IMG/VR virus record: IMGVR_UViG_3300017780_003084
Span: 26,330 to 90,329 of that record
Reading direction: 5' to 3' (one strand)
DNA from: a virus
Lineage: Duplodnaviria > Caudoviricetes
Length of the DNA stretch: 64,000 bases
Each line of letters starts with the position of its first letter. Positions within the stretch are counted from its first letter, which is position 1. The notes under the pieces were generated by a model that searched no databases, was not told the DNA's origin, and worked only from the letters and a program-made list of their open reading frames with translations. Positions 26,910 through 51,303 of this stretch are shown piece by piece. The position numbers and the translations under genes are program-made.

Positions 26910-27005
26910 TTAAGCCTTCTCAACCCTCTCCCTAGCAACCTTAAAATACTTCTCATCAAGCTCAATTCCTATGAAGCTTCTGTTAGTGTTTTTACAAGCT
27001 ACTCC
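26910..27005 (-). pseudogene. Orphan second C-terminus of a DNA methyltransferase
   Basis: No start codon; reads GVACKNTNRSFIGIELDEKYFKVARERVEKA*, homologous to the C-terminus of the upstream MTase. Confidence 0.8.
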
Positions 27006-29420: not shown

Positions 29421-29687
29421 ATCTAATCTCCTTATCCTATTCAATGACACCCCTTATAGTTCCTTATTAGATACTACCCCTATAATAAGCAGAAATTGCA
29501 GTGCAAATGCCTTGAAAGCCTTTACCAGTATAGCTTTCAGCGATATTCTACATAATTTATTTCCAGTGTTTAGGCCGAAACACACTCTCTTAAAACTCCC
29601 AATACACCCATTCTACAACACACTCCCAAGATTTGTCAAGTACAAATAACAAATCCCTCGTATTTCTACAAGGGCTTTTCCTACTAC

Positions 29688-30159
29688 TCAAGGTTGGATG
29701 TCAATATATGTAACACCATGTTCGCTATGAAAAACATCGTATTTAACCATTCCGTCCTCACTTAAGTAAATTTGGTACTCATCGTTGCAGCCAATCAAAG
29801 CGTCACAGTACCCCTCCTCGACAAGTTTATCAACTAATTTCTTCAAATCCCTTAGAGTTGCTTCTTTACACATACTTTACTCCTTTATTTAACTTAAACA
29901 ACTGTTTCAACTTATGCCACTAACTAAACGTCTCTTTCTTCTCAACCTTCCGAAACACCCACTCTCCATTGTGCTTGTGAGTTGCCAGTTCAACATGCAG
30001 TCCATTAAACTTAGTTCCAAATGTCATTTTACGACCTCTGACACTCCACACAACAATTTCACCCTTCTTAGAAACCAGTGTCATGTGATCGTCTGAGCTA
30101 CTTACCACTTCCCCTGTGAGTGAGTTCACAACTCTGTATTTGAATCCTGCATTAGTCAT
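29688..30159 (-). other. Two hypothetical ORFs (29688-29873, 29920-30159)
   Basis: Co-oriented with SD sites, downstream of a TTGACA promoter near 30200-30228. Confidence 0.65.
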
Positions 30160-30255
30160 ATACGCTCCATAAATGTGTTTGTCGAATCGACAGAACGAAT
30201 ATTAAAGGAATCGAAGATAAATGTCAACACAACCCTCTAAGATATTTGAAATCTA

Positions 30256-30284
30256 TTGACAAAACCTCAATAATATGTTATAAT
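30256..30284 (+). promoter_or_regulatory. sigma70-type promoter
   Basis: Perfect TTGACA-17 bp-TATAAT. Confidence 0.9.
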
Positions 30285-30310
30285 AGACATCTTTAAAAAG
30301 GAAAAATAAA

Positions 30311-30976
30311 ATGGACTTGCAGACACAATCAGTTTGGGGCTTAAACAACCAAGAAGAAATTGTAGTAAAGTTGGGCACTGGTGGAGACTCTGTTGTTGGA
30401 GTCCTTCCTACTAATCAGATACCTGTTGATGCAGATGGTAAACTCGTGCTAAGAATACCAGAACTGGACTCAATAGGTTCTAGCCCTCTCAGTACAGGGT
30501 TCTTCGACTATAACGACAGTGCTACAGCCATAACACCTATTAGTGTGTTGGCGAATACATGGACTAAACTAACTAACAATGGTTTGGGAGCATTTACTAA
30601 CAAGACGTATAAACCCGCTGGTGTGGCTGAAGTATGGAATACTACAACGAATAGGTTCGAGTGGGGAGACTTGGTACTTGGTGACACGTTAGATATTAGG
30701 GCTGATATTGATATAATTACATCTGTTCCAAACCAAATAGTTAATTTGGCGGTATTCAATGCAGTGGGAACTGCAGGAGAGTATGAAATTGACCTAATGC
30801 CTGAGACAACCTATAAAACTGTGGGTATTAAGAAGATCATTACATATATTGGTATCTATATGGGTGATACCAATACGTTGAACAACCCTTCAGAGATACG
30901 GATTAGGAGTGACGCAGCTTGCTCAGTTAAAGTCAATGGGTGGTATGTGAGGTTGTTATTAGTGGGACAGCACTAA
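30311..30976 (+). CDS. Stand-alone beta-rich hypothetical protein, possibly virion-associated
   Basis: Thr/Gly/Asn-rich beta-strand composition; own promoter and terminator; orientation opposite to its neighbours. Confidence 0.6.
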   Translation: MDLQTQSVWGLNNQEEIVVKLGTGGDSVVGVLPTNQIPVDADGKLVLRIPELDSIGSSPLSTGFFDYNDSATAITPISVLANTWTKLTNNGLGAFTNKTYKPAGVAEVWNTTTNRFEWGDLVLGDTLDIRADIDIITSVPNQIVNLAVFNAVGTAGEYEIDLMPETTYKTVGIKKIITYIGIYMGDTNTLNNPSEIRIRSDAACSVKVNGWYVRLLLVGQH

Positions 30977-30980
30977 AAGA

Positions 30981-31015
30981 AAAGCCCCTTCCTTGCGGTT
31001 GGGGCTTTGTTGTTT
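30981..31015. terminator. Bidirectional terminator between convergent genes
   Basis: AAAGCCCC...GGGGCTTT with A-tract before and T-rich tail after. Confidence 0.8.
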
Positions 31016-31038
31016 ACACTTCAGGTGGTGATAAGTAA

Positions 31039-31788
31039 TCAATCATAAGCTGTTTCTAAGTCTTTAAAAGCCCTAGTAGCAGGGTCGTACTGCGGTGTAA
31101 GTACTTCCCCATCAACTTTCTTCTTACGTGGCTTAGATGGCTTTTTAAGCGCCTTCTGAGCGGCTTTCTCGAGCTTTTCTACTTGCTCCTTATACCAAGC
31201 ATTGCGTTGCTCAGAACGTTCCATCCAGCCTTGAGCATCCAACCAGATATTCTTTCCTAGCATCATTTCATCAAACTCTTGATCTGACAAGAATCCTGAA
31301 TAGATTTCCTTGTAATATTCGTACAAGAACTTCTTGTCAAAATCACTCTTAGCATGGTACTCATTTAAGTTACCAAAACTACCACTAGAACCGTTATGGA
31401 TCAAGCTGTTAAAGTTACGAGACAGTTCAAAACTATCTGCTTGTAATAATATGTGTGTTCCTGCTGAATGCACTCCTCCAGAGGCTACGATGTGTATTGG
31501 ACAAGCACATTTCTCCATAGCGTGAATGAACCCACCTGACACATCAACGTTACCACCACAACTTTGCAAACTAATAACTACTTGGTCTTCTTCTTCAGCA
31601 GCTTCAAGAGCTTCAATACCCATTGTCACTTGCTCCATACTAATAACAGGAGCGTGGAAGTTAATCTTGAACACCCCTGTTTTATTTGGGGTGTAGGACA
31701 CAGTGATACGGTTATTGTCTTGGTATTCTTCTGAAAAGTTATTACGAGCTTGTAGTTTGTTGATATTTTCTTTGTAATTTGGTTTCAT
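31039..31788 (-). CDS. ClpP-like (crotonase-fold) protease
   Basis: LQSCGGNV, catalytic HSAG and LIHNG, NIWLDA. Confidence 0.8.
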   Translation of the reverse strand: MKPNYKENINKLQARNNFSEEYQDNNRITVSYTPNKTGVFKINFHAPVISMEQVTMGIEALEAAEEEDQVVISLQSCGGNVDVSGGFIHAMEKCACPIHIVASGGVHSAGTHILLQADSFELSRNFNSLIHNGSSGSFGNLNEYHAKSDFDKKFLYEYYKEIYSGFLSDQEFDEMMLGKNIWLDAQGWMERSEQRNAWYKEQVEKLEKAAQKALKKPSKPRKKKVDGEVLTPQYDPATRAFKDLETAYD

Positions 31789-31797
31789 GTGTTCTCC

Positions 31798-32598
31798 TTA
31801 ATCTTTTGAGTAAGCAGAGATGACGCTCTGCACTACAGGATGTCTCTTACATTCTTGGTCTGTGAAAGAATGAAATCCTACGTGTGGGTATTTAGCACTT
31901 AAAAATCCTTCAGGGTCTTCTACAAAGAATCTGTTGATAGCATCTGCAAGACCATTGCGCTTACCATTACCTTGCAGAATCTGATTACTATCCCCTGCCA
32001 CCACCACAGTTGTCCCATCACCGATACGTTCTAATAGCAGCTTCAGAACTTGAGGGGATAATTGTTGTGCTTCGTCAATCAGTACAAGTTTGTCAGTCCA
32101 CGTAGCACCTAGTTGGAAGTTAGGGATTGTGAAATGAATTCGTGTGTCTCTGTCTGCATCTACAACACCCGCACCTAAGAATTTCTCAAGGATTTGTTTT
32201 GCAGGGAGGAAATGCACTTCAGTTTTTTGTGTCAAGTCCCCTTGCAAGAATCCAATGGTGTCTTCATTGAATTCTACTGGAGTGCGAATCACCATAATCT
32301 CTTTGTACCGATCTGCAAGGTATTCTTTGCAGAAGTGCCACAACACAGATGAGCTTTTGCCTGTACCTGCTGCAGCGTCTACGAATGTTAGTGTATTGCC
32401 AATTATTGTATTAATACACTCTTTCTGAGATTTGGTTGGAACGAAGTCATTAATTCTACCCATCTTATCTTCTTGCAACTTTGCATTCATTACAAAAGAT
32501 TGTCCACCAGTTCTGCTAATTTTTGTACTCTTGGTTATTGAACGAGCCATCGAGATTATCTCCCAGATTAAAGTTAAACTACCAAGCACTTGATACAT
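31798..32598 (-). CDS. phoH: PhoH-like ATPase
   Basis: AGTGKS, IGFLQGDL...K, LIDEAQQ, LLERIG, VAGDSNQ, RHPVV. Confidence 0.88.
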   Translation of the reverse strand: MYQVLGSLTLIWEIISMARSITKSTKISRTGGQSFVMNAKLQEDKMGRINDFVPTKSQKECINTIIGNTLTFVDAAAGTGKSSSVLWHFCKEYLADRYKEIMVIRTPVEFNEDTIGFLQGDLTQKTEVHFLPAKQILEKFLGAGVVDADRDTRIHFTIPNFQLGATWTDKLVLIDEAQQLSPQVLKLLLERIGDGTTVVVAGDSNQILQGNGKRNGLADAINRFFVEDPEGFLSAKYPHVGFHSFTDQECKRHPVVQSVISAYSKD

Positions 32599-32620
32599 GC
32601 TTGGCTTATACTACAAAATA

Positions 32621-33291
32621 CTACTGATTAAAATTACTTAACACTTGCTTCTCTAACAACTTCTCAATTGTCGTGCCAGATTCAATCGCTAATTGTGTAA
32701 ATGCCTTATACACATCCTTCGGAATTCGCACAGTAACAGGGAATAATGTTTCAGGTTGATTAACATGAACACCACTGCCAATCAAGTTGAAGTTCTCTGC
32801 AAACACTGTGTAGTTATCTGCTTTTGTGCGGATTGTATCGCCTGTAATTGGATTGAAGTCTGTCCTACTCTTACCAAAATTTCCACTATTCGTTGTCACT
32901 AAACATCCCTCCTTCTGAATTTACTCTACCATTTTCAATCTTTAAGACAAGATTTCCATCTTCATCTGTCCATTCTACTAACATGCCACCTTGTTTGCAT
33001 GACTCTAACACATCATACAGGTCAGCTTCTAGTAATTGTTTATTTTTCTTGCCCATTTGGTTTACGTCCACGAGGTTTTGGAGCTTCTGTTAGCTCTTCT
33101 TGTTGTTCTTGTATAGCACCACGAATTACTATAGCGTTATATTGCTGGTCAATCCAAGGATACTCTGAAGCTTCCTCTGAGATGATAAAGCCTTCTTTAA
33201 ATTTAGCTTGTAGTTCTAATGCAAATTGTCCTACAGAGCTTTCACGGATTGTGATTTTTTCCAAGTTAATTCCTTTCATTTTATTATTCAA
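32621..33291 (-). other. Three hypothetical ORFs (32621-32899, 32886-33071, 33040-33291)
   Basis: Co-oriented; 32621-32899 ends in a ribbon-helix-helix-like VTVRIPKDVY...LAIESG motif. Confidence 0.6.
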
Positions 33292-33516
33292 AATCTTCTG
33301 TAAACAGTAAATGCTCTACGAAGTCGTTTACATCGAGATATTCCAGTTCTACATATTCTTCCATTTAGTTCTCCTTGTTATGAAATTTAAAACATTCCTT
33401 CAGAAATTAAACTATAACACCTAAAGCCATGAAATGCAAGTATTTCTTTTCAACAACTTTAAATGGTTACTTGCCCTACTTATTGTTAGGTACTGTAATA
33501 ACTTATGGTTGTTATA

Positions 33517-33545
33517 TTGACAAATGACTCTAGATGTGTTATAAT
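33517..33545 (+). promoter_or_regulatory. sigma70-type promoter
   Basis: Perfect TTGACA-17 bp-TATAAT. Confidence 0.9.
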
Positions 33546-33584
33546 GCAATGGTTTATAGAGTCATTAACTAACAGAAAGAATAT

Positions 33585-33848
33585 ATGGCAAATTCGATAC
33601 CAGATTTAAATCTCACCCTTACAGATTGGGTAAATGTGTACGCGACTACAGGGATAGCTGTAGGTACAAGCATTGTCATTCAAAACAAGGCTTCAAACCC
33701 TGTGCTATTATACATTGCAGCTTCAAAACCTACAACGTCTTCTTATGATGGGTATGCCATTCGAAGTTTAGAAGCAGTTGTTGTTGATGCTGCCGAATCT
33801 GGCTGCTGGATACGTGGCAGCGGTGTAGTCAATGTTCAACAAGGATAA
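33585..33848 (+). CDS. Small beta-rich putative virion accessory protein
   Basis: First gene of the operon; all-beta composition. Confidence 0.5.
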   Translation: MANSIPDLNLTLTDWVNVYATTGIAVGTSIVIQNKASNPVLLYIAASKPTTSSYDGYAIRSLEAVVVDAAESGCWIRGSGVVNVQQG

Positions 33849-33850
33849 TC

Positions 33851-34552
33851 ATGGCAATTAGACCAATAAATAATGGTGGAAGTGGTAGTGGAGGTGGTGG
33901 AGCTGTTGCATCTCCTTACATGTATAACTTCTACAGCGATTTGATCGAACTCAATAGTGCGATGACAAGTTACGGTGTAATCACTACAGTGTCATTATCA
34001 GGTGGGACTTGTGCCACTTTAATTGAAACAGGATATGATGGACAGTTTACCTTTACATCCTCAACTACAGCTATTTCAGGTGGTTCCCTTAGAATTGCTA
34101 ACGGTAATATAACTCCGAGAGCAGGGGATATAACGCGATTATGGTTTAAAACTCCAGCGACAATGGACGCAAGCTCTGTTGTTAATTTTGGTTTTGCTGA
34201 CTCTTTCTTGACATCACCACAGAATTTTGTTGGAATGCAATTGAGTGGAACTTCTTGTAGAGGTCTAGTTATTACAGCAGGTGCGAGTACCCAAGCCAAC
34301 AATCCAATCACATTAAGTCCTTCTACTCGTTATTGTGCAGAAGTTAAGTATACTTCAGACACTCAAGCTAGTATTAAGATATATAGCAATACAGATGGTA
34401 GTGAATTAAACTCAAGTAGCTTCACTGTAACTGTTACTCGCAGAGTTCCTATTATGGTAGCAGTTAATAGTGGCACAGTTGCTAAAGACATTATTATAGC
34501 AGATGCAATTGATCTTCGATTAGTAAAACGTGGAACTAAATTACCAGAGTGA
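33851..34552 (+). CDS. Putative virion accessory protein (lectin-like beta sandwich)
   Basis: Gly-rich linker followed by a Ser/Thr-rich beta domain. Confidence 0.45.
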   Translation: MAIRPINNGGSGSGGGGAVASPYMYNFYSDLIELNSAMTSYGVITTVSLSGGTCATLIETGYDGQFTFTSSTTAISGGSLRIANGNITPRAGDITRLWFKTPATMDASSVVNFGFADSFLTSPQNFVGMQLSGTSCRGLVITAGASTQANNPITLSPSTRYCAEVKYTSDTQASIKIYSNTDGSELNSSSFTVTVTRRVPIMVAVNSGTVAKDIIIADAIDLRLVKRGTKLPE

Positions 34553-34617
34553 TTTCGAGGGAAACCTCACAACAGCAAATTTATCATACACATGGTAAAT
34601 AATTTATAAGGGAAATT

Positions 34618-35658
34618 ATGAGTAATAATGTAGTAGTTCGTAATTTAACAGCAGGGGCAACTTATGTTGATCTTCCGCCTAATGTAACCAAAGATGCTAG
34701 GATTGAGGTTACATTTCAAGACAATAAAAACGGGAATATTAAAGCAAAGCAAGATGCCAACAATCCATCTCGGTTACTTTTGAACACACCTCTACCTGCA
34801 GCTTGCTCTGTTGTTGTTGAGATAGAGCAAGATGAGTCTTTTAGCCCTTCTTATACAACTAAGGTTGCAGACTATGATGCTTCTCGTGGTTATGTGCGAG
34901 GGGCTTTAGTTTTCAACAAAGGTCGTGTCTATCGAGCATGTAACGACATTCCATTAGGTGTTGTTTTCAAAACATCGAATGTACCAAACGCAACAGGTCA
35001 GGTTTGGTACAATACAGCAGGTGACACTGGGACTGTTATTGAGTCTATTCTCAATCTTACAGTAAATGACGGATATTGGCAACTAGACGGTACAACAATT
35101 AACGCTCCTTGGTCTGCATTGCATACTGTAGCCACTCCAGACACTCGCCAAAAAGTATTAGTTGGAGCACACTCAGGTTTAGCTTCTAATGATTACAGAA
35201 GTCCACTTCAATACTCTGGTTCTTCATCAATTCAATTAGCAGTATCTAACCTTCCAACTGGTAATTTTGGTGTCTCTATTCCTTCAGATGGTGGACATTA
35301 CCCAAGTGGTTCTGTCTCAGTAAGTCAACATAATGCTTATAGATTACAAAGTTATCGCCAATTGACAAGCAATAATAATGTAACTCCTTGGTTTCAAAAA
35401 TCGTCCGATACAACAGGTAATCCTGATGGTGCTGGTGACAATGACGGTGGTGTATGGTGGAGACAATACCACAGAGGTCGTGAGGATTATTTTGTTTATG
35501 CCGATGTTCCAGCACAAGGTCATTCTGCATCATTTAGTGGTAATTATGTGAATAATCATAGTCATTCGGGTGCTACGGTGACATTGAATGCAAACTCGGT
35601 TGCTCCTATCTCAGTAATGCAACCTCAAATGTCAATCAATCGCTACGTTCGTTTATAA
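34618..35658 (+). CDS. Tail-collar-domain fibre-like protein
   Basis: YDASRGYVRGALV carbohydrate-binding-like module, WQLDG...DTRQKVLVGA collar motif, HSH motif and terminal VMQPQMSINRYVRL. Confidence 0.6.
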   Translation: MSNNVVVRNLTAGATYVDLPPNVTKDARIEVTFQDNKNGNIKAKQDANNPSRLLLNTPLPAACSVVVEIEQDESFSPSYTTKVADYDASRGYVRGALVFNKGRVYRACNDIPLGVVFKTSNVPNATGQVWYNTAGDTGTVIESILNLTVNDGYWQLDGTTINAPWSALHTVATPDTRQKVLVGAHSGLASNDYRSPLQYSGSSSIQLAVSNLPTGNFGVSIPSDGGHYPSGSVSVSQHNAYRLQSYRQLTSNNNVTPWFQKSSDTTGNPDGAGDNDGGVWWRQYHRGREDYFVYADVPAQGHSASFSGNYVNNHSHSGATVTLNANSVAPISVMQPQMSINRYVRL

Positions 35659-35673
35659 TAATAAGGAGAAAAT

Positions 35674-37194
35674 ATGACAATTTACATTAAAGAAGTATTG
35701 GTGCGTCTTGCAAGTATTCCTTCTGCTGGCTCATACATCACGTTAGAAGTACCAGAAGGTACTGAAATTGGGGCAACTATTACCGTAATTTTTTCAGATG
35801 GTAGTGGCGGAAATCCTTCTGTAACCTCTTATACCAGAGTTGGTCAGTACATTACTGTAGAAGTCCCATCAGGGGTTGGTGAGGCAGGGTTAGTGATGCG
35901 AATCGAGCAAACATCTGATTTCCAAGATGACTCTGTAGGTATTCAGGAAGTTACAGTTGTTGCAACAAACACCCTTAATGCTGGTAATAACGCTTCTGTC
36001 TCAGCAGATAATTCTGAGAAAGGCAAGGCAAAACTCACGTTTAACATTCCTAAAGGTAATACTGGTAAATCCGCTTACGAGCTTGCTGTCACAGCAGGTT
36101 TTGTGGGAACAGAAGCTGACTATTTAGCATCTTTAAAAGGTAAAGACGGGGTTAATGGTATTAACGGAACCAATGGTGTTGATGGTAAAGACGGTGTTGT
36201 AGGCAAGTCTAACTACGAGTTGGCGGTAGATTTAGGTTTTTCTGGTACTCAAGCTGAATACTTAGCATCTTTAAAAGGTGTCAAAGGTGATAGAGGTTTT
36301 ACTGGAGATACGGGTTTGTCTGCCTACCAATTAGCTGTTAGTAATGGTTTTGTTGGAAGCGAATTAGACTACTTAGTATCTTTAAACGGTGCAAAAGGGG
36401 ATAAGGGTGATCGTGGCGCAGCAGGTGTCGATGGTAAGGATGGAGTTAGTATAGGTGGTTCTCGTTACGACGAGTTGGCTGGTGGAACATTTTGGTGGAT
36501 TCGTCCTCGCTATGTAAACAAACCAAACAATATTTATATTCCAGCAGAACAGAAGTATGTAGATGGAGCAGAATACACAACTAAGTTTGTTGTTGAAGAT
36601 ACACTGCATACAGACAATGGTGTATATATCCCTCCAACTGAACGATTGACATTATCTCATCACGGACAAGCTATTAGAGTTGTTCCAACAAATACACAAG
36701 CTTTCTCTGTAGCGTCAGTGGGACGTATCAATCATGCAGCTTGGAAGACTACATCAATGCGTACTTGTAATTTCAAAGGTGCATATTTCGTAGAGATTGA
36801 CCCTTCTGTGGTTTCTGCGCAAGGTATTACAAGCGCAAATCTTGGAGACATCGAGGTAAGTGTCTCTCCAGTTAATGCTTCGGGTTATGATGTAAAGTAT
36901 AACTCTACTACAAATATTAGTATCAGTACGGAACGAGCCAAAGGTGTTCTTACTCCTATTTATATAGGTGCAATGAAAGACCCTGACGATGGTAAGGTTT
37001 ACTTGTTATTCCGTCCAGTGACTTATGCAAAACGTAGAAATACTGCTACTGTAGAAGACGGAGCCTCTTGGGACGGTATTTCTGAGGGCGACGGTGAAGA
37101 TGGCGGTTGGTTGTTGTATGATGAAGATGTACGTTGGTGGTCTACTAATGTTGCACAAGGGTTTCATTTTGTAGCAAAATTACGTAAACGTTAA
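35674..37194 (+). CDS. Collagen-like fibre protein
   Basis: Gly-X-Y runs alternating with three copies of G(K/L)S(A/N)Y(E/Q)LAV..GF.G(T/S)...YL.SL(K/N)G. Confidence 0.75.
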   Translation: MTIYIKEVLVRLASIPSAGSYITLEVPEGTEIGATITVIFSDGSGGNPSVTSYTRVGQYITVEVPSGVGEAGLVMRIEQTSDFQDDSVGIQEVTVVATNTLNAGNNASVSADNSEKGKAKLTFNIPKGNTGKSAYELAVTAGFVGTEADYLASLKGKDGVNGINGTNGVDGKDGVVGKSNYELAVDLGFSGTQAEYLASLKGVKGDRGFTGDTGLSAYQLAVSNGFVGSELDYLVSLNGAKGDKGDRGAAGVDGKDGVSIGGSRYDELAGGTFWWIRPRYVNKPNNIYIPAEQKYVDGAEYTTKFVVEDTLHTDNGVYIPPTERLTLSHHGQAIRVVPTNTQAFSVASVGRINHAAWKTTSMRTCNFKGAYFVEIDPSVVSAQGITSANLGDIEVSVSPVNASGYDVKYNSTTNISISTERAKGVLTPIYIGAMKDPDDGKVYLLFRPVTYAKRRNTATVEDGASWDGISEGDGEDGGWLLYDEDVRWWSTNVAQGFHFVAKLRKR

Positions 37195-37207
37195 TAAGTA
37201 GGATTAT

Positions 37208-37243
37208 GCCAAGGACTAAACCTCCTTGGTATTTTTATTTTCA
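37208..37243 (+). terminator. Rho-independent terminator
   Basis: GCCAAGGA...TCCTTGGT followed by ATTTTTATTTT. Confidence 0.8.
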
Positions 37244-37251
37244 CAAGGGGC

Positions 37252-37280
37252 TTGACAATAGCGTAAGTGTGGTTTATACT
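37252..37280 (+). promoter_or_regulatory. sigma70-type promoter for the packaging operon
   Basis: TTGACA-17 bp-TATACT. Confidence 0.8.
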
Positions 37281-37310
37281 TCATATTATAAGTAAATAAG
37301 CAGGAGATGT

Positions 37311-37685
37311 ATGAGCGACGTAGATAATTCAGTAGGAGAGATAGTACGGACAGGTGTTCAGAGTAAGAAGAATCCTATTACTGTTTTCAAAAGGGCTTTG
37401 AACAAACATAGCAAAACGGCAATTGATTATTTAGCTTCTATTATGGATGACCCATCAGCTTCTAGGAAAGATCGTATGGAAGCTTCTAAAGAGTTACTAA
37501 AATTACATGCAGATATGCTGAAAGCAGAATCAACTGAGAAAGCCCGTAATAAGGAATTTGCAGCAAAACATCATGAGTTGCTTGTAGGGATACAGCGTAA
37601 TGGTGGTGTTATTGTGGATGATAATGATGAAGACGATGAAAGTCAACCACTTTTAGATTTTGAAAATATCAGTGAGATTGACTGA
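37311..37685 (+). CDS. terS: Probable terminase small subunit
   Basis: Helical, size 124 aa, acidic tail, first gene of the operon containing terL; assignment is positional. Confidence 0.55.
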   Translation: MSDVDNSVGEIVRTGVQSKKNPITVFKRALNKHSKTAIDYLASIMDDPSASRKDRMEASKELLKLHADMLKAESTEKARNKEFAAKHHELLVGIQRNGGVIVDDNDEDDESQPLLDFENISEID

Positions 37686-37689
37686 TCAT

Positions 37690-38245
37690 AAAGAATATAG
37701 CTCACTTGTAAGAAGGAAAGTGTACTTAATCGGGTTAGACTAGTTTTACTCCTCCCGAAGAACGGACTTCTCGGCAACACCCTCCGTCTTTGTACAGCGC
37801 TATTTAATAAAGTACCTTATGGGACTTGGAGCCTTTTGGAAACAAAAGCAAATATGTGGTTGCAGCCACCTTATAGGATTGAGGAGTTCCTTATAAACCT
37901 CTTTAGATTGTAAATACAACAGCTCTCCGTCATTCTCCTGCCATGCACTCCTCATGGTTCTCCTGTGACGTTGTAGAGCTGTTCTGTTTACAATTTTCGC
38001 AACGGTGTTTCGTCCCATATCTGGTAATTGGAGCCGTAAGTATCGTGGAACATTGTTGTATTCGCTATTTGCGAATAGCGAATAAGTCCACATAGTCCAC
38101 TCTAAGATTTCATGCTTGGAGATTCGTGCTATGTGGGTGAGTTTTATTATGTCAGGGTATTGGAGAGGACAACCTCACAGAATCTCTAGTGCTTCTGATA
38201 TAATGGAATTTATTAACAGTCCTTAAGGACACAGCTTGTGAGGAG
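37690..38245 (+). ncRNA. Large structured non-coding RNA candidate (~560 nt)
   Basis: Many long stems with G-U wobbles on the plus strand (e.g. 37907-37926/37975-37994, CCACATAGT/GCTATGTGG, 38145-38155/38195-38205), a GAAA tetraloop, a long-range TATGGGAC/GTCCCATA pairing, and no credible ORF. Confidence 0.7.
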
Positions 38246-38251
38246 CGAAAT

Positions 38252-39223
38252 ATGACGAAGAGAATACATACCACAAAACCGCAGATCAAAGTCGGGGATG
38301 TTTTTAAAACTAACTGCTATGGGGATGTAGAAGTTATTGAGTATCTTGGTGCAAATAAAATTAAAGTAAGATTTGAGGTTGACGGATATGAAAGATATTC
38401 TACATCTGGTAACTTGCAAAAAGGCAAGGTGAAGAATCCAAACATACCAACAATCACACACGCAAAACGATTGACAAAAACTGTCAGTATAGGTGAAATT
38501 TATAAGAACACGAATGGATTACCATTTAAAATTGTAGAATACACAGATGCAAGTAATGTTAAAGTTGAGTTTGAATCAGGCTACATGACCACATGCACTC
38601 TTCAAAGAGTTCGTGAAGGGAATATCTCTGACAACTTATCTCCTTCAAGATTTAAAGGGTATTTAGGTACATTGCAAGGTATTGAAGTTAAAAACGTGGC
38701 AAAGACTAAAGAATATGCTCACTGGTCAAGTATGTTAGCAAGGTGTTTCTGTGAAGAGTATCGCAATAAATATCCTACTTATGAAGGTACAATGGTTTGC
38801 GATGAGTGGTTAAATTTTACTGTTTTTGCTAAGTGGTGCAGAGAACAACCTGAATTTTTACTAGGTCACAAGGTTTTCCTAGACAAGGATATCCTCAACA
38901 AAGGGAATAAACTCTATAGTACAGAAACATGTACTTTTGTGCCACATGATGTAAATACTTTATTTACTAAAGCTGATGCAAGTAGAGGTAAATATCCTAT
39001 AGGAGTATCCTACTGTACAACTCGAAATGTAATAACTGCTTGCGTTCGTATTGACAAACGGACGAAGTATTTGGGACGGTTTGAAAGTGCAACTGACGCT
39101 TTCTACGCATACAAGAAGGCAAAAGAATCTTATATTAAAGAAATTGCTGATAAATTTAAGTCGGTTATTTCAAAGGAATGTTACTTAGCTATGTATAAAT
39201 ATGAGGTTGACATAACAGATTAG
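38252..39223 (+). CDS. Free-standing HNH-type homing endonuclease with C-terminal AP2-like domain
   Basis: Two N-terminal beta repeats (VGDVFKTNCYG.../IGEIYKNTNG...), WSSMLARC, VCDEWLNF, LDKDILNKGNKLYS.ETCTFVP..VN, and C-terminal PIGV...KYLGRF...AFYAYK. Confidence 0.75.
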   Translation: MTKRIHTTKPQIKVGDVFKTNCYGDVEVIEYLGANKIKVRFEVDGYERYSTSGNLQKGKVKNPNIPTITHAKRLTKTVSIGEIYKNTNGLPFKIVEYTDASNVKVEFESGYMTTCTLQRVREGNISDNLSPSRFKGYLGTLQGIEVKNVAKTKEYAHWSSMLARCFCEEYRNKYPTYEGTMVCDEWLNFTVFAKWCREQPEFLLGHKVFLDKDILNKGNKLYSTETCTFVPHDVNTLFTKADASRGKYPIGVSYCTTRNVITACVRIDKRTKYLGRFESATDAFYAYKKAKESYIKEIADKFKSVISKECYLAMYKYEVDITD

Positions 39224-39230
39224 AGGTAAA

Positions 39231-41261
39231 ATGATTAAAAAAGAAAGAGTAAAGTTTCAGCCTTGTAGTGAAAAGCAGAGGCTGATTCTCATGGATAACA
39301 CTACAGATGTTATTCTTATTGGTGGTTAAAATGCTCTGCCTCCAATTCAAAAACAATTCTCTAATTAGGTGGAACCCCTTGAAATAGGGCAATACCTAGC
39401 GAAGCCTAGAAATAGGAACGTGTGACGGTCAGCCAAAAGGCGTAGCATCAAGTGATGTGAAACGGGAATCAGGCGAAAGCTGGAAGATATGACCTCATCT
39501 GTATAGTAATATACAGCAGTTTAATAAACGGCAGTTACTTAACGAGAAACTGTGAAGACATCCGCTTGGGAGCTGGCGGGGGCAAATCGAGGATTTGCCT
39601 TACAAAAAATTTAGATGGGATTAAAGACCCTAAATTTAGATGTGTAATCCTAAGACGTTTTGAACCAGAACTCAAGCGTCAGGGTGGATTAATAGATGAA
39701 TCTAAGAATGTTTATCCACACTTCACAAAAATACCTTACAAAAGCCAACAGAAATTGTGGGAGTTCCCTTCAGGTGCAACAATAGGATTCTCTGCAATTT
39801 CTTGTGATGATGACTTAGGAAGTTGGCAAGGTAGTCAATTAACGCGTAAATATTGCGCCTTTATTTAGAGATAGATAAAGCAAACTCATTGAACTCAGGG
39901 GAAGCATAGAAAATGTTATCCTGATCTAAGCCTAAAACAAGCAATATTGTTAGTGATAGGAAAGACCAACGACTATCCCGAAAGGGAGTACACTCAAGCG
40001 AGTGGAAGCGGTGAGAGTCCTCCTCTGAGGATTATGATATAGTCTGAACTATATAGGGATATATAGCAGCTTGAATAAAGCGAGATGAGTCTAGCGAACT
40101 CATTTGAACATTTTGATATTAATTGATGAAGCAGCAGATAAGTGGACTGAGAAGCAAGTGTTGTTCTTGCAATCACGTTTGCGTACAGTGGGTTCTGATA
40201 TCCACCCACAATTAATTATGTCTTGTAATCCAGACCCAAATAGTTTCTTATTCGATTGGGTGAAATTCTGCCTAGACGAAGATACAGGCGTACCAAAAGA
40301 AGGGACAGAACATATTATTAGATGGTTCTGTGTAGAGGATAACAAAGCTAAATGGGCTACAAGCCCTGAAGAGTGTTATGAACTATATGGGGCTCCTAAG
40401 AATCTTATCTATGCTCATGGTATGACAGAAGAGCAAATGAATGCATTCTCTAGAGAAGAGAAGATGCGGTTATTCATGCCGAAGAGTTTCAGATTTATCC
40501 CAACTGGAGTATTTGATAACGTATATCTTTTACCTCCGAAAAATAATAGTTATTTAGCGTCTCTACTCTCTCAACCTTATGTAAATCAGTTAAAATTTTT
40601 ACATGGAAGTTGGACTGCACGAGAGCTTGGGAGTTCTTACTTCGACAGAAAGTGGGTTCAAATTGTTGACCAGCCTCCTGTAAATGCCACAGCTAGGATA
40701 CGTTCTTGGGACTTCGCTTCAGAAGAAAAGACAAAAACTAACAACCCTGACTGGACAGCAGGTGTAAAAATGTCTAGGGATAGATATGGCATTTACTATA
40801 TCGAGAATGTTGTTAGAGTACAGATGCGGATTGATGGTGTTTTAAAAACTGTTATTGAGACTGCCAAAGCTGATGGTGTTGCTGAATGTGAAGTTTGTAT
40901 TCCAATTGACCCTGCAGCAGCAGGTAAGAGTAGTGCTCACTTCTTTCAGAAAGTATTGGCAGAGAATGGTATTCCTTGCAAGAAAGCTCAATCCTCTGGT
41001 CACAGCAGTAAGCTCACAAGATTTAAGCCGTTTTGTGCATTAGCTGAGAGTGGTAGTGTTCGTGTGGTTAAAGGTGACTGGAACGATGCATTCTTTGCAG
41101 AGCTTGAAGCATTTTCTGGTGACAAGGCAATTGAGAGAACCCAGAAGAACGATCAAGTTGATGCTTGCTCAGATAGTTTTAATCAATTAGCAAGACAATT
41201 GCAACTACCTGTGTTTTCTGTACCCTCCTTAACAAAACCCTCACCAGTCCCAACAATATAA
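39231..41261 (+). CDS. terL: Terminase large subunit, three exons: 39231-39326, 39569-39847, 40116-41261 (506 aa spliced)
   Basis: Splicing restores Walker A ILIGG|GAGGGKS and Walker B WQGSQLTR|ILIDE; nuclease motifs WDFAS, IPIDP and DQVDA in exon 3. Confidence 0.92.
39327..39568 (+). mobile_element. ORF-less group I intron 1 (242 nt, IA2-like)
   Basis: 5' exon ends in U pairing with IGS GCCUCC (U-G at the splice site); P10 GCUCU/GGAGC; P7.1/P7.2 hairpins; P7 GGUCA/UGACC; terminal G at 39568. Confidence 0.9.
39848..40115 (+). mobile_element. ORF-less group I intron 2 (268 nt, IA2-like)
   Basis: P1 GCGU/GCGC with U-G; P10 AAUAU/AUAUU; canonical ACGACUA (39969-39975) and GAUAUAGUC (40036-40044); terminal G at 40115. 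Confidence 0.9.
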
Positions 41262-41303
41262 CCTGTAATTATACCATAACTAATATATCTTGCAAGAAAT
41301 TAC

Positions 41304-41332
41304 TTGACATTTTTAACAGTAAGTGGTATAAT
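41304..41332 (+). promoter_or_regulatory. sigma70-type promoter for the head operon
   Basis: Perfect TTGACA-17 bp-TATAAT with a TG extension. Confidence 0.9.
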
Positions 41333-41373
41333 TACACCAAATTAAATAATAAGCATTACAAGGAGCAATAAAT

Positions 41374-42888
41374 ATGCCAGAAGCGAACGCGCCTGATGGC
41401 GTTGCATCAGCTCTACAGCCTGACAGTGGAACTATTATACCACGTATAAAACTATCGTCAACAGGTTTTTCTACCTTACGCACAGCTAACGGACGCATTT
41501 ACGAAGAAGCTAATGCCGCCTTCAGAATGCCAGCTCGTATCAAAGTAGTGGAAGAAATGAGACTCAGCCCTCCTGTAGCCATAGGAATGAACGCTATTAG
41601 AATGCTTATGAATCGTGCAGAAATGTATGTAGAGCCTTTTGATGACACTCCTAATCACAGAGAACGTGCAAAGTTCTTACACTCTTGTTTGCACGACATG
41701 GAAGAAACATTCCAGCAAACAATGCAGAATACTTTCCCTGTTCTTGAATATGGCTTCCACGTATCTGAAAAAGTATATCGTAGACGCTTAAAAGTAAATG
41801 GTAGTAAATACAATGATGGTCTTGTAGGGCTTAAATGCCTTGCAACTCGCCCTCAAGCTTCCATTGAAAAGTGGAATTTCTCAGAAGATGGTAGAGAGCT
41901 TGTCAGTGTATCACAGTCTATTGTAAATTTGGAGAATAGTTATAGATTTCAAAATCTCACAGACAAAAATGGTTTAATTGTTATCCCTCGCGAGAAGTTC
42001 GTCCTCTTCAATGTTGACCCTACTAACGGCAATCCTGAAGGTAACTCAGTTCTTAAAGCAGCTTACTTAGCTTACAAGCAATTAACATTGCTAACAGACA
42101 ATATGATGACAGGTGTTGCCAAAGATACACAGGGTCTTCCTGTTATTGGTATCCCTCCTCAGTTTATGGCTCCAGATGCTAGTGACGATCAAAAAGCTGT
42201 CTATCAGATGTTCATGAAGATTGTTGATGATTTAGCAAGTGGCACTCAGCGCGGTATTGTCATGCCAAAGTCTTACGACATGGATTCCAAGGGTGAAATG
42301 TTCACTGTGGAATTGTTAGAGTCTAAAGGTGGTAAGGCTTACAACGTGTTAGAGATTATCAAGACACTTCAAGCTAACATTCTTTCTGTGCTGTCATGTG
42401 ATGCTGTCAAGATGGGGAGTGATACTGCAGGTTCGTTGAGTTTAGAGGATGGCGACACAAATTTGTTGGCGATGGCTGTTAGTTATCGCTTAATGGAGAT
42501 TGCTAATGCTTTGAACAAGGATTTAGTGCAGCAGCTATGGACACTCAACGGATGGGACTTGTCAGAAATGCCTCAGATTAAATTCAAGGATGTTTCTAAT
42601 GTATCTCAGGAAACTTTCAGTAAGTTTATACAACGTGTGGCTTCAACAGGTCTGTTAGAACTTGATCGTGGTGTCATGAACCGTGTACGAGAAGTTGGTG
42701 GATTTGATTTGCTTCCACATGATCTTCCAATTCAAGAAGATATGTTATCAACAACTATGACTGGAAAAGCCTCTAGTGCATCAGAGGGTATGGAGGTCGG
42801 GGTTGGTAATACTGTTGAGGGTGGAACGTCTAAAGGTGGTGGTAAGAAGACTGACAATTCTGTAAAAAATAGTGAGAACAAAGGATAA
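41374..42888 (+). CDS. Portal protein
   Basis: 504 aa directly after terL; YGFHVSEKVY, NPEGNSVLKAAY, GLPVIGIP and GSLSL patterns of DUF935/Felix O1-like portals. Confidence 0.85.
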   Translation: MPEANAPDGVASALQPDSGTIIPRIKLSSTGFSTLRTANGRIYEEANAAFRMPARIKVVEEMRLSPPVAIGMNAIRMLMNRAEMYVEPFDDTPNHRERAKFLHSCLHDMEETFQQTMQNTFPVLEYGFHVSEKVYRRRLKVNGSKYNDGLVGLKCLATRPQASIEKWNFSEDGRELVSVSQSIVNLENSYRFQNLTDKNGLIVIPREKFVLFNVDPTNGNPEGNSVLKAAYLAYKQLTLLTDNMMTGVAKDTQGLPVIGIPPQFMAPDASDDQKAVYQMFMKIVDDLASGTQRGIVMPKSYDMDSKGEMFTVELLESKGGKAYNVLEIIKTLQANILSVLSCDAVKMGSDTAGSLSLEDGDTNLLAMAVSYRLMEIANALNKDLVQQLWTLNGWDLSEMPQIKFKDVSNVSQETFSKFIQRVASTGLLELDRGVMNRVREVGGFDLLPHDLPIQEDMLSTTMTGKASSASEGMEVGVGNTVEGGTSKGGGKKTDNSVKNSENKG

Positions 42889-42890
42889 CG

Positions 42891-43727
42891 ATGTCACATG
42901 AATTAATTCGACTTATGGGAAGTGTAATAAATTCGCCACAACTCATCACACAAGATAGTTTTGCACCAATCCTCGATTACTTAACCTTGCGCAATACAGG
43001 TTTGATTGATATGAGAGATACCTCTAAAGAATCTCCTAAGAAGCCAGAGCATGTTAAAGCAAATTCTGGTAAATCTATTGGTGAGATTCAAGTATCTGGG
43101 GCTTTGACTTACAAACCTGTTCAAATGATGTGTGCTCCTGATGGGACAAGTTACCAACAACTTATCACAGACACAGAGCAACTAGTCTCGCAAGGCGTTA
43201 AAACTATATTATACACGCATTCGAGTGGAGGTGGAGAAGCTGCACATTGTTTTACTACAGCCAACCGACTACGTGAATTGGCAGATGAGAATGATGTAAC
43301 TCTTGTGACTTACATTGATGAAATGTCAGCTTCAGCAGCTCTTGCATTAGGTATTGTCTCTGACCATGTAGTTATTCATCCGAGTGCTAAGACTGGCAGT
43401 ATTGGTTGCGTTTGTGCAGTCGTAGATCGTAGCAAGGCTTTAGCAGACGCTGGATTGAAACCAATCTATATCAGCTCAACTGCAGGAAAAACGCCATTTC
43501 AGTCTGACGGTTCATTCAGCCAAAGCTTTTTGGACAATCTTCAATCAGAAGTAACAGAACTTGGTAATCAGTTTGCACAGCACGTAGAAAAATATACAAG
43601 TATTCCAGTTGATGAGATTCTTGCACTGGATGCTCAAGTATTTAATGCTAAACGTGCCAAAGAGCTAGGACTTGTTACAGCCGTGATGAACCATCAAGAA
43701 TTCGCAGATTTTCTTGCAAACCTTTAA
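42891..43727 (+). CDS. Prohead protease (S49/SppA-like)
   Basis: SSGGGE, SASAALALG, TGSIGCV. Confidence 0.88.
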   Translation: MSHELIRLMGSVINSPQLITQDSFAPILDYLTLRNTGLIDMRDTSKESPKKPEHVKANSGKSIGEIQVSGALTYKPVQMMCAPDGTSYQQLITDTEQLVSQGVKTILYTHSSGGGEAAHCFTTANRLRELADENDVTLVTYIDEMSASAALALGIVSDHVVIHPSAKTGSIGCVCAVVDRSKALADAGLKPIYISSTAGKTPFQSDGSFSQSFLDNLQSEVTELGNQFAQHVEKYTSIPVDEILALDAQVFNAKRAKELGLVTAVMNHQEFADFLANL

Positions 43728-43735
43728 GGACAAAT

Positions 43736-44263
43736 ATGTTAGACCATTTGAAAAAGTATTTTTCTACGCAAGTAGAAACCACCCCTGCGCAAGCAGACAT
43801 TGAAAAGGAAGTCGTTAATATGACTACAGCAACAGAGCAGCCAATGGCGGCTGAAAACAACTCCGCAGACTTGGTAGCACAGCTTGCTTCCTCTACATCT
43901 GCTTTAACTGAATTGCAAGCTTCTTTTGCAGAGCTTACTTCTAAGTTTGAAACAGCTCAAGCTGCTTTGACAGCAGTAGAAAATGAGAAGCAAGAATTGG
44001 CAACTAAGGCTGTAGAAGCCCGAACAGCATCTCGTAAAGAATCCCTAGAAGCTGTAATTGGAACTGCTAAAGCAGCTACATTACTAACTTCATTGGAAGT
44101 GTTGGATGACACAGCGTTTGCTGCTGTTGTATCAACTATGAAGGTCAATCTCGATGCAGAAGCAAAGAGTGAAGCTTTCACTGAAACAGGCGTGGCAGCA
44201 GAAGCAAACTCAGACGTGCAAGTAGCACACTTCAAAGATTATATTAAAAAAGGAAATAAATAA
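43736..44263 (+). CDS. Scaffold protein
   Basis: Ala/Glu-rich coiled coil between the protease and the decoration gene. Confidence 0.7.
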   Translation: MLDHLKKYFSTQVETTPAQADIEKEVVNMTTATEQPMAAENNSADLVAQLASSTSALTELQASFAELTSKFETAQAALTAVENEKQELATKAVEARTASRKESLEAVIGTAKAATLLTSLEVLDDTAFAAVVSTMKVNLDAEAKSEAFTETGVAAEANSDVQVAHFKDYIKKGNK

Positions 44264-44652
44264 TGACTAAATTAGCAACACTCGGCAAAAAACTTTCAGG
44301 TGTATTAGCATTTGAAGATATGCCAGAACACGGTTTTTGCCGTAAGACAGTAACAGTGACTATCCAAGCTAATATGGATGTTGGTGCAGTTTTGCATTTA
44401 ACTGGTGGTAAGTATGTTTGGGTGCAACAATCCACTCACGCTGCAGCTACTGACGTGTGTGTATTGATTGACCACATGAAAGACATTCCAAGCTTGGCAG
44501 CAGGCGATCACCAATTAGCAGTGTTATATCGTGGTAGTGCTGGGGTTGTAGATACTGGCTTGTTGTACAAAGATACTTTGTCTGGTGCTGAGAAATTGGT
44601 AGTGCAAGGTAAGTTGGAAACAAAAGGCGTAGTAACGCGCACTGCTGTTTAA
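44263..44652 (+). CDS. Head decoration protein
   Basis: 129 aa immediately before the major capsid gene; lambda gpD-like position and size. Confidence 0.7.
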   Translation: MTKLATLGKKLSGVLAFEDMPEHGFCRKTVTVTIQANMDVGAVLHLTGGKYVWVQQSTHAAATDVCVLIDHMKDIPSLAAGDHQLAVLYRGSAGVVDTGLLYKDTLSGAEKLVVQGKLETKGVVTRTAV

Positions 44653-44678
44653 TAGATAAAAGAATAAGGAATAAATAA

Positions 44679-45719
44679 ATGAACATTCGTGATTACTTCA
44701 ATAGCTTTAAGAATGCCGACTTCGTAGACGGTATCACTAACACACCTTTGCAATACGGTTATATTAATAGCCAAAACATGTTCAATGTTAAAGGTACTAA
44801 CCAAACAGCGATCATCTTTGATAAAGATGCTACTACTACAACTTTGTTGCCTCAAGTAAATCGTGGTGATAAGTCTGCGACGCAGAATAAAGAACGTGGC
44901 GCAGAAACATTCGCATTGAAACTAGCATACTTCAAACATGAAGACCGCTTGACTGGCGAAGATATTCAATCTTGGCGCAAAGTTGGCTCTACAGAAAGCC
45001 AAACATTGGCTGCTGCTACTGCCGACAAGTTGACAGATATGCGTCGCACTTGGGATCAGACTAATGAATACTTGAAATTGCAAGCACTCAAAGGTATTGC
45101 TAAAACGCCAGATGGTACAGTATTAGCAAACATGTTTACAGAGTTTGGTATCACTCAAACTCCTGTTGACTTCTTGTTAGGTACTTCTACTACTAACGTA
45201 GACCAAAAGATTCGTCAATTGAAGACAGCAATTTCTAAGAACTTGCAGAATGGCGGGGCTATCTCCGGTATTGACGTATTGGTTGACCCGTTGTTCTTCG
45301 ACAAGTTGATTTCTCATGCAAACATGAAGACAGCTTACCAATCTTATGTAAACTCTGGTAAACAGTTGTTACGTGACGATTTGTCTAGCTACATGAAATG
45401 GGGCATTATGGATAGCTTCAACTTCCGTGGTGTGAACTTCATCTCCTACGATGCAACATTCAACTTACCAAATGGTTCTACAGAAGACGCTTTCGCAGCA
45501 TCCTCTGGTACAGCCTATGCAACAGGTTCAAAAGACTTGTTCCGTGGCTATAATGGTCCAAGTAACAAGCTTTCTGCAGCTAACGAAGTTGGTCAAGAAA
45601 TCTACATGAATACTTATGTTGATCCTAAAGATGAATTCGTAGAGTTTGAAATGGAAGCAGCTCCATTGTACTTCTGTACACGTCCTGCATCATTAATCGC
45701 AGTTTCTTCGTCAAACTAA
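44679..45719 (+). CDS. Major capsid protein (phage_cap_E-like)
   Basis: 346 aa with highly biased codon usage; EYLKLQALKG, FTEFGI and EAAPLYFCTRP patterns; followed by a terminator. Confidence 0.9.
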   Translation: MNIRDYFNSFKNADFVDGITNTPLQYGYINSQNMFNVKGTNQTAIIFDKDATTTTLLPQVNRGDKSATQNKERGAETFALKLAYFKHEDRLTGEDIQSWRKVGSTESQTLAAATADKLTDMRRTWDQTNEYLKLQALKGIAKTPDGTVLANMFTEFGITQTPVDFLLGTSTTNVDQKIRQLKTAISKNLQNGGAISGIDVLVDPLFFDKLISHANMKTAYQSYVNSGKQLLRDDLSSYMKWGIMDSFNFRGVNFISYDATFNLPNGSTEDAFAASSGTAYATGSKDLFRGYNGPSNKLSAANEVGQEIYMNTYVDPKDEFVEFEMEAAPLYFCTRPASLIAVSSSN

Positions 45720-45739
45720 TTAACACAGTCTGTTAATAA

Positions 45740-45770
45740 AATACCTTCTCAGAAATGGGAGGGTATTTCA
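45740..45770 (+). terminator. Terminator after the capsid gene
   Basis: AATACCTTCTCA-GAAA-TGGGAGGGTATT. Confidence 0.7.
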
Positions 45771-45798
45771 GTTAGTAGATTTCTTCAAAGGATATAAC

Positions 45799-46616: not shown

Positions 46617-46619
46617 TAT

Positions 46620-51302: not shown

Positions 51303-51303
51303 T

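Follow-up and report, generated by a model that had tools for sequence, protein, structure and literature searches.

A covarying phage hairpin with unpaired CUCCU motifs upstream of terL as a possible Shine-Dalgarno-occluding riboregulator

Small RNAs (sRNAs) with C-rich or CU-rich loops, such as RNAIII and RsaE of Staphylococcus, pair with purine-rich Shine-Dalgarno (SD) sequences and block initiation (PMC4615179), and LhrC of Listeria carries three redundant CU-rich sites that pair with SD sequences and could bind several mRNAs at once (PMC4132741). The cuckoo RNAs of alphaproteobacteria consist of two to four adjacent chromosomal hairpins with CCUCCUCCC in every loop, and their function is unknown (PMC4615179). 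In phage T4, RegB inactivates early mRNAs at GGAG (A-rich) SD sequences, with most middle and all late mRNAs escaping; the tRNA region of this phage also gives rise to RNAC and RNAD, two stable small RNAs that still lack an explanation after fifty years (PMC3014915). Roles have been assigned to few of the small RNAs of virulent phages. Here, we describe hairpin D, a conserved element between the open reading frame (ORF) ORF124 and terL in a 64,000-nucleotide stretch of the Caudoviricetes record IMGVR_UViG_3300017780_003084. This stretch, hereafter the window, forms the final 64 kb of an IMG/VR phage record of 90.3 kb, the whole genome of which spans -26247..64000 in window coordinates. D offers a clear structure, a simple conserved recognition motif, and a concrete target class, GGAG-type vs AAGGA-type sites. 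We tentatively read it, at a little under even chances and from sequence and predicted folds, as a multivalent riboregulator that would occlude ribosome-binding sites.

D resembles LhrC, RNAIII, and RsaE in that motifs rich in C or CU recur redundantly and are placed in loops or single-stranded segments, binding by D being predicted. However, these 3 are chromosomal Firmicutes sRNAs with UCCC in separate hairpins, a single strand, or a terminator loop, whereas D is encoded by a phage, in a tRNA-operon setting, and displays CUCCU on one rod of 34 bp, with motifs in the apical loop and on the two strands of a symmetric internal loop; neither its sequence nor Rfam relates it to LhrC, RNAIII, or RsaE. 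With the cuckoo RNAs, D shares an anti-SD-like motif that is the sole conserved sequence and is repeated, as well as stems that drift by compensatory change. It differs from them in being one phage-borne hairpin that nests its motifs, with a CUCCU core and not CCUCCUCCC, and it falls outside the definition of that family. The wider class of SD-occluding sRNAs with CU- or C-rich loops, with RNAIII, LhrC, RsaE, and 6C among its members, has 3 properties that were also found in D: a motif in unpaired loops (predicted), redundant conserved copies, and complementarity to a definable target set. Homology to a described family of this class was not found: Rfam searches of the entire window at the gathering threshold, and of 37200-39900 and the corresponding region of locus L048 at E <= 10, returned only tRNAs and the terL group I intron, with no match to D, and BLAST (megablast, blastn) against 50,697 phage records returned no homolog of D. 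As far as sequence comparison goes, D is a new phage RNA family without an Rfam entry and without homology to described families.

The earlier note on this DNA, made from the letters alone, had described a symmetric hairpin at 37928-37970, and on re-reading its letters and coordinates matched exactly (CGTCA 37928-37932, TTCTCCTG 37933-37940, CCATG 37941-37945, CACTCCT 37946-37952, CATGG 37953-37957, TTCTCCTG 37958-37965, and TGACG 37966-37970). That hairpin is real but forms merely the tip of a far larger 92-nt hairpin, 37905-37996. The strands of the reported 8x8 internal loop are indeed symmetric and identical, but ViennaRNA adds 1 pair per side, leaving a 6x6 loop of UCUCCU facing UCUCCU. 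The additional CTCC motifs listed near 37749, 37781, and 37924 were found as well. The whole hairpin, supported by minimum free energy (MFE) folding and by covariance model (CM) matches, is made up of the following parts:

37905..37996, plus strand: hairpin D, about 92 nt, in the order P1, P2, P3, internal loop, P4, apical loop; one copy per complete genome
37905..37916, plus strand: 5' strand of P1, 12 bp with 37985-37996; AU-rich, with G.U pairs, and compensatory changes at most P1 positions
C37917 / C37984, plus strand: C.C mismatch, C opposite C in 13 of 13 distinct homologs when the MFE fold of each sequence is parsed
37918..37926, plus strand: 5' strand of P2, 9 bp with 37975-37983, followed by a small junction and P3
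37928..37933, plus strand: 5' strand of P3, CGUCAU, 6 bp with GUGACG at 37965-37970
37934..37939, plus strand: 5' strand of the internal loop, UCUCCU, complement of AGGAGA(A); unpaired probability 0.76; CUCCU core in most homologs
37940..37945, plus strand: 5' strand of P4, GCCAUG, 6 bp with CAUGGU at 37953-37958
37946..37952, plus strand: apical loop, CACUCCU, 7 nt; unpaired probability 0.97
37959..37964, plus strand: 3' strand of the internal loop, UCUCCU, placed by per-sequence folds

The MFE of 37905-37996 (plus strand) was -38.1 kcal/mol compared with a shuffle mean of -14.7 (z = -8.65), and 0 of 200 shuffles folded as well. The rod from P1 to P4 comprises about 34 bp in total, and its fold is unaltered when the entire 566-nt intergenic region is folded. 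With 1.1 kb of context folded, the bases of the CUCCU motifs had unpaired probabilities of 0.76-0.97. The CUCC motifs in D are spaced 12-13 nt apart, TTCTCCTG forms a direct repeat with its copies 25 bp apart, and the tip of D is the sole 43-nt stretch of the 64-kb window with at least 3 copies of CTCCT on the plus strand.

Homologous loci were collected via ORF124 homologs from IMG/VR, JGI, ENA, Logan, and NCBI assemblies; a metagenome scan with an ORF124 profile gave 3 loci, 1 of them new, and exact-pattern scans of IMG/VR for element B, a second RNA module of the region, gave 1 more. A CM of D built from 9 hairpins matched on the plus strand between ORF124 and terL in 19 of 19 loci covering that region, with scores of 68-110 bits. 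These loci represent 13 distinct D sequences, and each of 5 complete phage genomes has exactly 1 copy. Folded singly, all 13 sequences showed the common architecture, C.C mismatch included. In the CM-based alignment of the 13 sequences, standard pairs occupied 99.1% of cells, whereas shuffles gave 85% and slid controls 38-50%; 15 of the 25 outer pairs had compensatory changes with both sides altered, and the covariation score of D was 0.555 vs 0.265, a level reached by 0 of 500 shuffles. Because this alignment was fitted to the CM and the sequences are related, we gave the single-sequence folds more weight. Such folds show replacement of the whole P3 helix in relatives, from CGUCAU/GUGACG to CACUGA(U)/(G)UCAGUG and to other pairs. 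Whole-helix replacement also affects P4, where GCCAUG/CAUGGU becomes GGCACG/CGUGCU, CCGUG/CACGG, CUGUG/CACAG, or CACG/CGUG.

Across the 13 sequences, the plus-strand folds contain 56 G.U pairs and the minus-strand folds 0, and the plus-strand fold is more stable by 5-15 kcal/mol in 13 of 13 homologs. Together, these asymmetries mark D as a plus-strand RNA and not a DNA site, in support of the earlier note, which had treated the hairpin as RNA on this strand. The tRNA genes that relatives carry in the same region are likewise all on the plus strand. Two ORFs overlap D, 37800-38093 (minus strand) and 37943-38095 (plus strand), and their coding potential was excluded by indels of 1, 2, 4, and 5 nt together with the compensatory stem changes. 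A descriptor scan of IMG/VR for TTCTCCT-N-CTCCTC-N-TTCTCCT returned at least 120 matches, with the architecture of D found only in the already known family.

The loop motifs, whose conservation the earlier note had left to a comparison of homologs, are predicted to be unpaired and are kept while the stems covary; CUCCU represents the most conserved letters of D. The motif is present in the apical loop of 13 of 13 sequences and in at least 1 internal-loop strand of 13 of 13, giving 2-3 motifs per RNA, and the unpaired segments are nearly pure pyrimidine. On the 5' side of the internal loop, we found UCUCCU, UCUCCUU, UUCUCCU(U), GUCUCCU, and, in L010, UUCCUCCUA, with a degenerate CUUCAUUU in L048 and L049; the 3' side has UCUCCU, UUCUCCU, UUUUCCU, UUCUCCUA, and UUUCUCCU, with a degenerate GCUUUCAU in L010. 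Apical loops, 7-11 nt in length, include CACUCCU, CCCUCCU, UUCUCCUCCUU, UUCCUCCUCCU, UCCUCCUCCUU, UUUCUCCUU, and CUCCUCCUU. The internal-loop strands measure 6-9 nt, and CUCCU does not keep a constant offset from the stems. Such variation in length and register would be more in line with a short seed for base pairing than with a fixed surface for a protein.

We analyzed the SD sequences of the phage after calling genes crudely genome-wide, with starts chosen by the score of the duplex with the 16S tail in the same way for all genes. Of the 83 minus-strand (replication, early/middle) genes, 62 (75%) had GGAG in the SD window, compared with 7 of 39 plus-strand structural genes (18%; Fisher p = 3.6e-9). 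The longer AGGAGA was found in 27 of 83 and 2 of 39, and AGGAGAA, the heptamer seen most often as the SD in opposite-strand genes, in 17 of 83 and 1 of 39, respectively. The structural genes mostly have AAGGA(A/U). Examples are AAAGGAGAAATAAATG at 24736 (minus strand) and AATAAGGAATAAATAAATG at 44679 (plus strand), and opposite-strand genes often have AAGGAGAA. The GGAG split was repeated in 4 related complete genomes (p from 5.5e-10 to 3e-7), which are relatives and not independent samples. The earlier note had taken AGGAG as the SD of most genes in the window; this usage turned out to be confined to the early/middle class, with the late structural genes using AAGGA(A/U).

Its statement that the motifs are complementary to AGGAG-type SD sequences of the phage holds: the reverse complement of AGGAGAA is exactly UUCUCCU, and GAGGAG is complementary to the apical loop of D. 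By nearest-neighbour energies, the internal-loop strand pairs with AAGGAGAA at -10.0 kcal/mol, a site on which the 16S tail reaches -8.4, whereas on AAGGAAA the values are -4.8 for the loop strand and -5.9 for the 16S tail. Further, the SD of ORF124 changes with the loops by lineage, with CAGGAGA accompanying UCUCCUG in the window, AAGGAGG accompanying apical CCUCCUU in L048, and GAGGAGG accompanying UUCCUCCUA in L010; this apparent co-variation of the SD with the D loops, drawn from 3 lineages, is suggestive. The division between early GGAG and late non-GGAG sites, with a small RNA in the tRNA region, may be a functional analogy with T4. The 2 phages differ in that RegB is a protein nuclease and no RegB homolog was found in the genome of the window phage, and RegB was rejected as the cause of the split on this ground.

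Under the proposed riboregulator mechanism, a conserved sigma-70-like promoter would drive plus-strand transcription of D along with ORF124 and, in relatives, up to 6 tRNAs. D would be released as a discrete stable RNA by tRNA-type processing, a step suggested by several relatives in which the basal stem begins within 1-2 nt of the tRNA-Gly CCA. The rigid rod would then display 2-3 single-stranded CUCCU motifs, one apical and one per internal-loop strand, which as anti-SD mimics could pair with GGAG-type sites and exclude 30S subunits. Its targets would be phage early/middle mRNAs, including that of ORF124, and perhaps host mRNAs, with up to 3 bound per molecule. Early/middle translation would be lowered, and late mRNAs of the AAGGA(A/U) type, which the loops are predicted to bind poorly, would escape. 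This logic would be that of T4 RegB on GGAG sites, achieved by RNA pairing instead of cleavage. Homing-endonuclease cassettes are tolerated between D and terL, as are tRNAs between B and D, which favours diffusible over local action. The earlier note had proposed a multivalent SD-binding regulator; the conserved, predictably exposed motifs and their complementarity agree with that proposal, and its target class narrows to GGAG-type early/middle genes. We consider it rather unlikely that the fullest version holds, in which a trivalent anti-SD RNA from a tRNA operon silences the AGGAG(A/G) dialect only, as an RNA-only counterpart of RegB that drives the early-to-late switch of translation without a nuclease and possibly contributes to host shut-off. 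If the riboregulator model holds, phages would be able to time translation with an RNA that mimics the 16S tail, and the presence of RNAs other than tRNAs in phage tRNA clusters would gain a rationale; the trivalent rod could also become a small, portable means of repressing the translation of one class of mRNAs. Should the model prove wrong, D is still a clean example of a covarying phage noncoding RNA for Rfam.

Several points weigh against an SD-occluding function. Complementarity alone is weak evidence because CUCCU complements almost any bacterial SD. The Pakpunavirus PA10 has no SD split despite hairpins with CU-rich loops at the same genomic position, so the split is a feature of the window phage's lineage and not of the whole phage group. 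It could also stem from module ancestry or expression tuning; the 5 genomes that show it are related and not independent replicates, and the crude gene caller picks starts partly by SD strength, equally for both classes. The promoter of ORF124 looks strong and host-type and does not fix the timing of D relative to the early genes. Within D itself, stacking of the internal-loop strands as pyrimidine-pyrimidine mismatches could make them less accessible than the folds predict, and the universal C.C mismatch and two-fold symmetric loop are unexplained by SD pairing and hint at a protein or nuclease partner.

Such a partner is the essence of an alternative in which D serves as a platform or decoy for S1, for Rho with its YC-rich primary sites, for a cold-shock or KH reader of the 16S 3' tail, for host Ro60/Rsr, or for a phage protein such as ORF124, mRNA pairing not being its function. 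The identical internal-loop strands give a two-fold symmetry that would suit a dimer, the C.C mismatch in 13 of 13 homologs is not explained by RNA pairing, and the 12-13 nt spacing of the CUCC motifs is in keeping with this possibility. We nevertheless regard it as unlikely, given that loop lengths (6-9 and 7-11 nt) and the CUCCU register vary, that one internal strand has no motif in L010 and in L048, and that ORF124 has no recognisable RNA-binding fold. For Ro60, the comparison can be made directly, as bacterial Y RNAs of the YrlB/Yrn2 type have a GNCGAAN0-1G (GGUCCGA-like) Ro-binding motif in the basal stem and lie within about 4 kb of rsr/TROVE on the same strand (PMC4201824). D is like them in its length of about 100 nt, its long stem formed by the ends, its pyrimidine-rich loop, and its tRNA-like neighbours. 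However, GNCGAAN0-1G is absent from D and its homologs, and no Rfam Y RNA model matches D, so that D was rejected as a Y RNA; a search of the 90-kb genome identified no TROVE/Ro60 gene (PF05731) at E <= 1 and no RtcB gene. A role in RNA processing, stability, or termination, with D as an RNase III-type site, a 3' protective hairpin, or a weak terminator separating the tRNA/small-RNA unit from the terL mRNA and with the CU loops secondary, seems distinctly unlikely. RNase III sites of phage T7 (R1.1 type) have about two duplex turns interrupted by an internal loop, and the duplex of about 22 bp formed by P1 and P2, interrupted by internal loops, has a geometry compatible with such a site. D also comes last after the tRNAs, with a short U run next, in all homologs, and by eye no obvious promoter lies between D and terL in the shortest relatives. 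This role leaves the conservation and repetition of CUCCU in 3 unpaired places unexplained. As a terminator, D lacks the combination of GC-rich stem, short loop, and U run that marks an intrinsic terminator; its stem base is AU-rich, its U run of about 4 nt lies partly inside P1, a terminator consensus scan made no call, and terL would need read-through of D if there is no downstream promoter.

The constant position of D between ORF124 and terL would also fit a cis-acting leader of the packaging genes, whose loops would pair with the ribosome-binding site of terL or with a downstream purine box and set the translation of terL or ORF124. A conserved purine-rich box (GGAGAGG / AGGAGAAG) lies 20-90 nt downstream in most relatives and includes an exact AGGAGAA in L005 and L007, and the SD of ORF124 is complementary to the loops. 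However, the window has no purine box at the homologous place, an endonuclease cassette of 0.7-1 kb separates D from terL in the window, L048, L050, L051, L003, and L047, and tRNAs that are presumably excised lie between ORF124 and D, making a lasting physical link unlikely; we give the leader only a slim chance. It is very improbable that the entire intergenic region forms one large 'ornate' RNA of about 560 nt, with D as an arm and the loops engaged in tertiary contacts. The whole 566-nt region does fold better than shuffles (z = -5.9), but relatives share only modules B and D, have tRNA genes between the modules, and differ in the length of the region (311-836 nt); moreover, the D loops have no distant partner that covaries with them, and stem 2 of B covaries locally. 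Least credible is a DNA-level site (pac/cos, origin, or operator) that would function through a cruciform or through binding of the small terminase subunit to direct repeats. D does adjoin the packaging genes, and TTCTCCTG is repeated directly, but the G.U asymmetry and the greater plus-strand stability in every homolog described above argue against it, as do stems that covary without conservation of the DNA sequence.

The neighbourhood of D comprises the following features:

37252..37280, plus strand: sigma-70-like promoter TTGACA-17-TATACT, 11 of 12 consensus matches; candidate driver of ORF124 and the RNA cluster
37311..37685, plus strand: ORF124, conserved gene directly upstream of the non-coding region; its SD CAGGAGA is the complement of UCUCCUG
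37686..38251, plus strand: non-coding region with RNA modules, 566 nt, between ORF124 and the HNH gene
37856..37901, plus strand: element B, in which an H-type pseudoknot (loop 3 A-rich) comes after a small hairpin, GUGG-UUGCAG-CCAC; always upstream of D
38252-39223: free-standing HNH endonuclease gene, downstream neighbour of the non-coding region
39232-41261, plus strand: terL, split by 2 ORF-less group I introns, with exon 1 from 39232 to about 39325 (...VILIGG) and exon 2 from about 39566 (GAGGGKS)

A promoter of the form TTGACA-17-TATAAT/TATACT precedes ORF124 in 12 of 12 relatives examined. The ORF124 homologs fall into 19 protein clusters; ORF124 belongs to no Pfam or PHROG family, and its AlphaFold model is all-helical, with no significant structural match in BFVD. 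It is a candidate small terminase by position only. In relatives, it is the first gene of the rightward packaging/structural block, facing leftward PhoH and ClpP genes. In the window, a terminator-like hairpin with a T run at 37206-37232 closes the tail-fibre genes, and the ORF124 promoter follows immediately; most relatives have no tail-fibre genes here, and their ORF124 lies opposite a divergent leftward operon.

The non-coding region contains no tRNA in the window, and in relatives it spans 311-836 nt with 0-6 tRNAs and variable modules, of which B and D are universal and A, E, F, G, and H each occur in some relatives only. The pseudoknot of B has stems S1 AGGA/UCCU and S2 GAGG/CCUC, and both covary by eye, S1 among AGGA/UCCU, GUCAGA/UCUGAC, and GUCAG/CUGAC and S2 among GAGG/CCUC, GAGAAG/CUUCUC, GGGAAG/CUUCUC, and GGGAU/AUCCU; no Rfam match to B was found. 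Pairing of the D loops with the GAGGAG of B was ruled out, as changes in stem 2 of B are matched by its local partner, without any change in the D loops. In some relatives, B and D are split by a tRNA or another insert. The order in L048 is tRNA-Cys, tRNA-Trp, tRNA-Met, B, tRNA-Tyr, tRNA-Thr, tRNA-Gly, and D, with B exactly filling the 70-nt gap between tRNA-Met and tRNA-Tyr, and P1 of D begins 1-2 nt past the CCA of tRNA-Gly in L007, L010/L052, L048, and L049. The modular content and the interleaved tRNAs suggest that B and D behave as separate genes of a tRNA operon, both presumably freed by tRNA processing. Regulatory RNAs of the 3'ETS-leuZ type lie directly 3' of a tRNA in a polycistronic precursor. 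D has such a location in the relatives just named but not in the window, which has no tRNA there.

Downstream of D, homing-endonuclease cassettes of 0.7-1 kb with their own promoter-like element lie before terL in the 6 loci listed for the leader above, the window among them. Upstream of the HNH gene, at 38137-38251 (plus strand), a long wobble-rich hairpin is followed by an extended -10-like TGATATAAT; this module accompanies HNH/AP2-type endonuclease genes in the window, L003, L047, L007, and L048 and is probably the promoter and leader of the mobile cassette itself. The second terL intron, 39838-40066, was identified by Rfam with 81.5 bits; the first was not found at the gathering threshold and was placed from the exon junction.

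TerL is 37-42% identical to that of Pseudomonas myoviruses of the PAK_P1/PAK_P3 groups and 35-36% to that of Felix-O1-like phages. PAK_P3 produces 2 abundant late sRNAs (sRNA1/sRNA2) beside tRNAs, of which sRNA2 is tRNA-like (PMC4933390), and PAK_P3/Pakpunavirus, the closest cultured relatives by TerL, are like the window phage in having a tRNA cluster on the terL side. PA10 (L057, KY000083.1) has its tRNA cluster directly upstream of terL, together with several tRNA-like pseudo-tRNAs. Two hairpins there, L057:2606-2650 and 2860-2925, have CCUCC-rich loops (UCCUCCG in one; UUUCCUCCUCCUUUC, with CU-rich flanking strands, in the other) and are short, with a weak fold (z = -1.5). They give no covariation signal to read because Pakpunavirus genomes are 93-100% identical and the region is invariant, and no sequence or CM similarity to D was found in PA10/Pakpunavirus, so that the hairpins are a loose parallel to D. 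Nothing comparable was found upstream of terL in Nankokuvirus, Otagovirus, and 2 Ounavirinae phages.

Between D and the cassette, we observed 2 further structures on the plus strand. The hairpin 37999-38060, in which CAACGGUGUUUCG... pairs with ...CGUGGAACAUUGUUG, is G.U-rich and is kept in L004, L006, L008, and L009, with small compensatory changes and a variable interior. The palindrome 38060-38084, a perfect 11 bp of the form TATTCGCTATT-TGCG-AATAGCGAATA, is kept in 4-5 relatives, and 25 of its 25 bases match a region annotated as tRNA-Ala in Synechococcus phages of the S-RIM8 group; it resembles an extended anticodon arm with UGC and could be a tRNA remnant or an operator. Further, an unrelated 90-kb phage contig, L087 (IMGVR_UViG_3300014732_000001), has at 650-700 a simple hairpin with a CU loop, GCAACC-UUCCUCCUCAUUC-GGUUGC. 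The sequences UUUCUCCU and UUCUCCUCCCC lie on either side of this hairpin, which is located in a non-coding gap before tail-fibre genes and is possibly another RNA of the anti-SD type.

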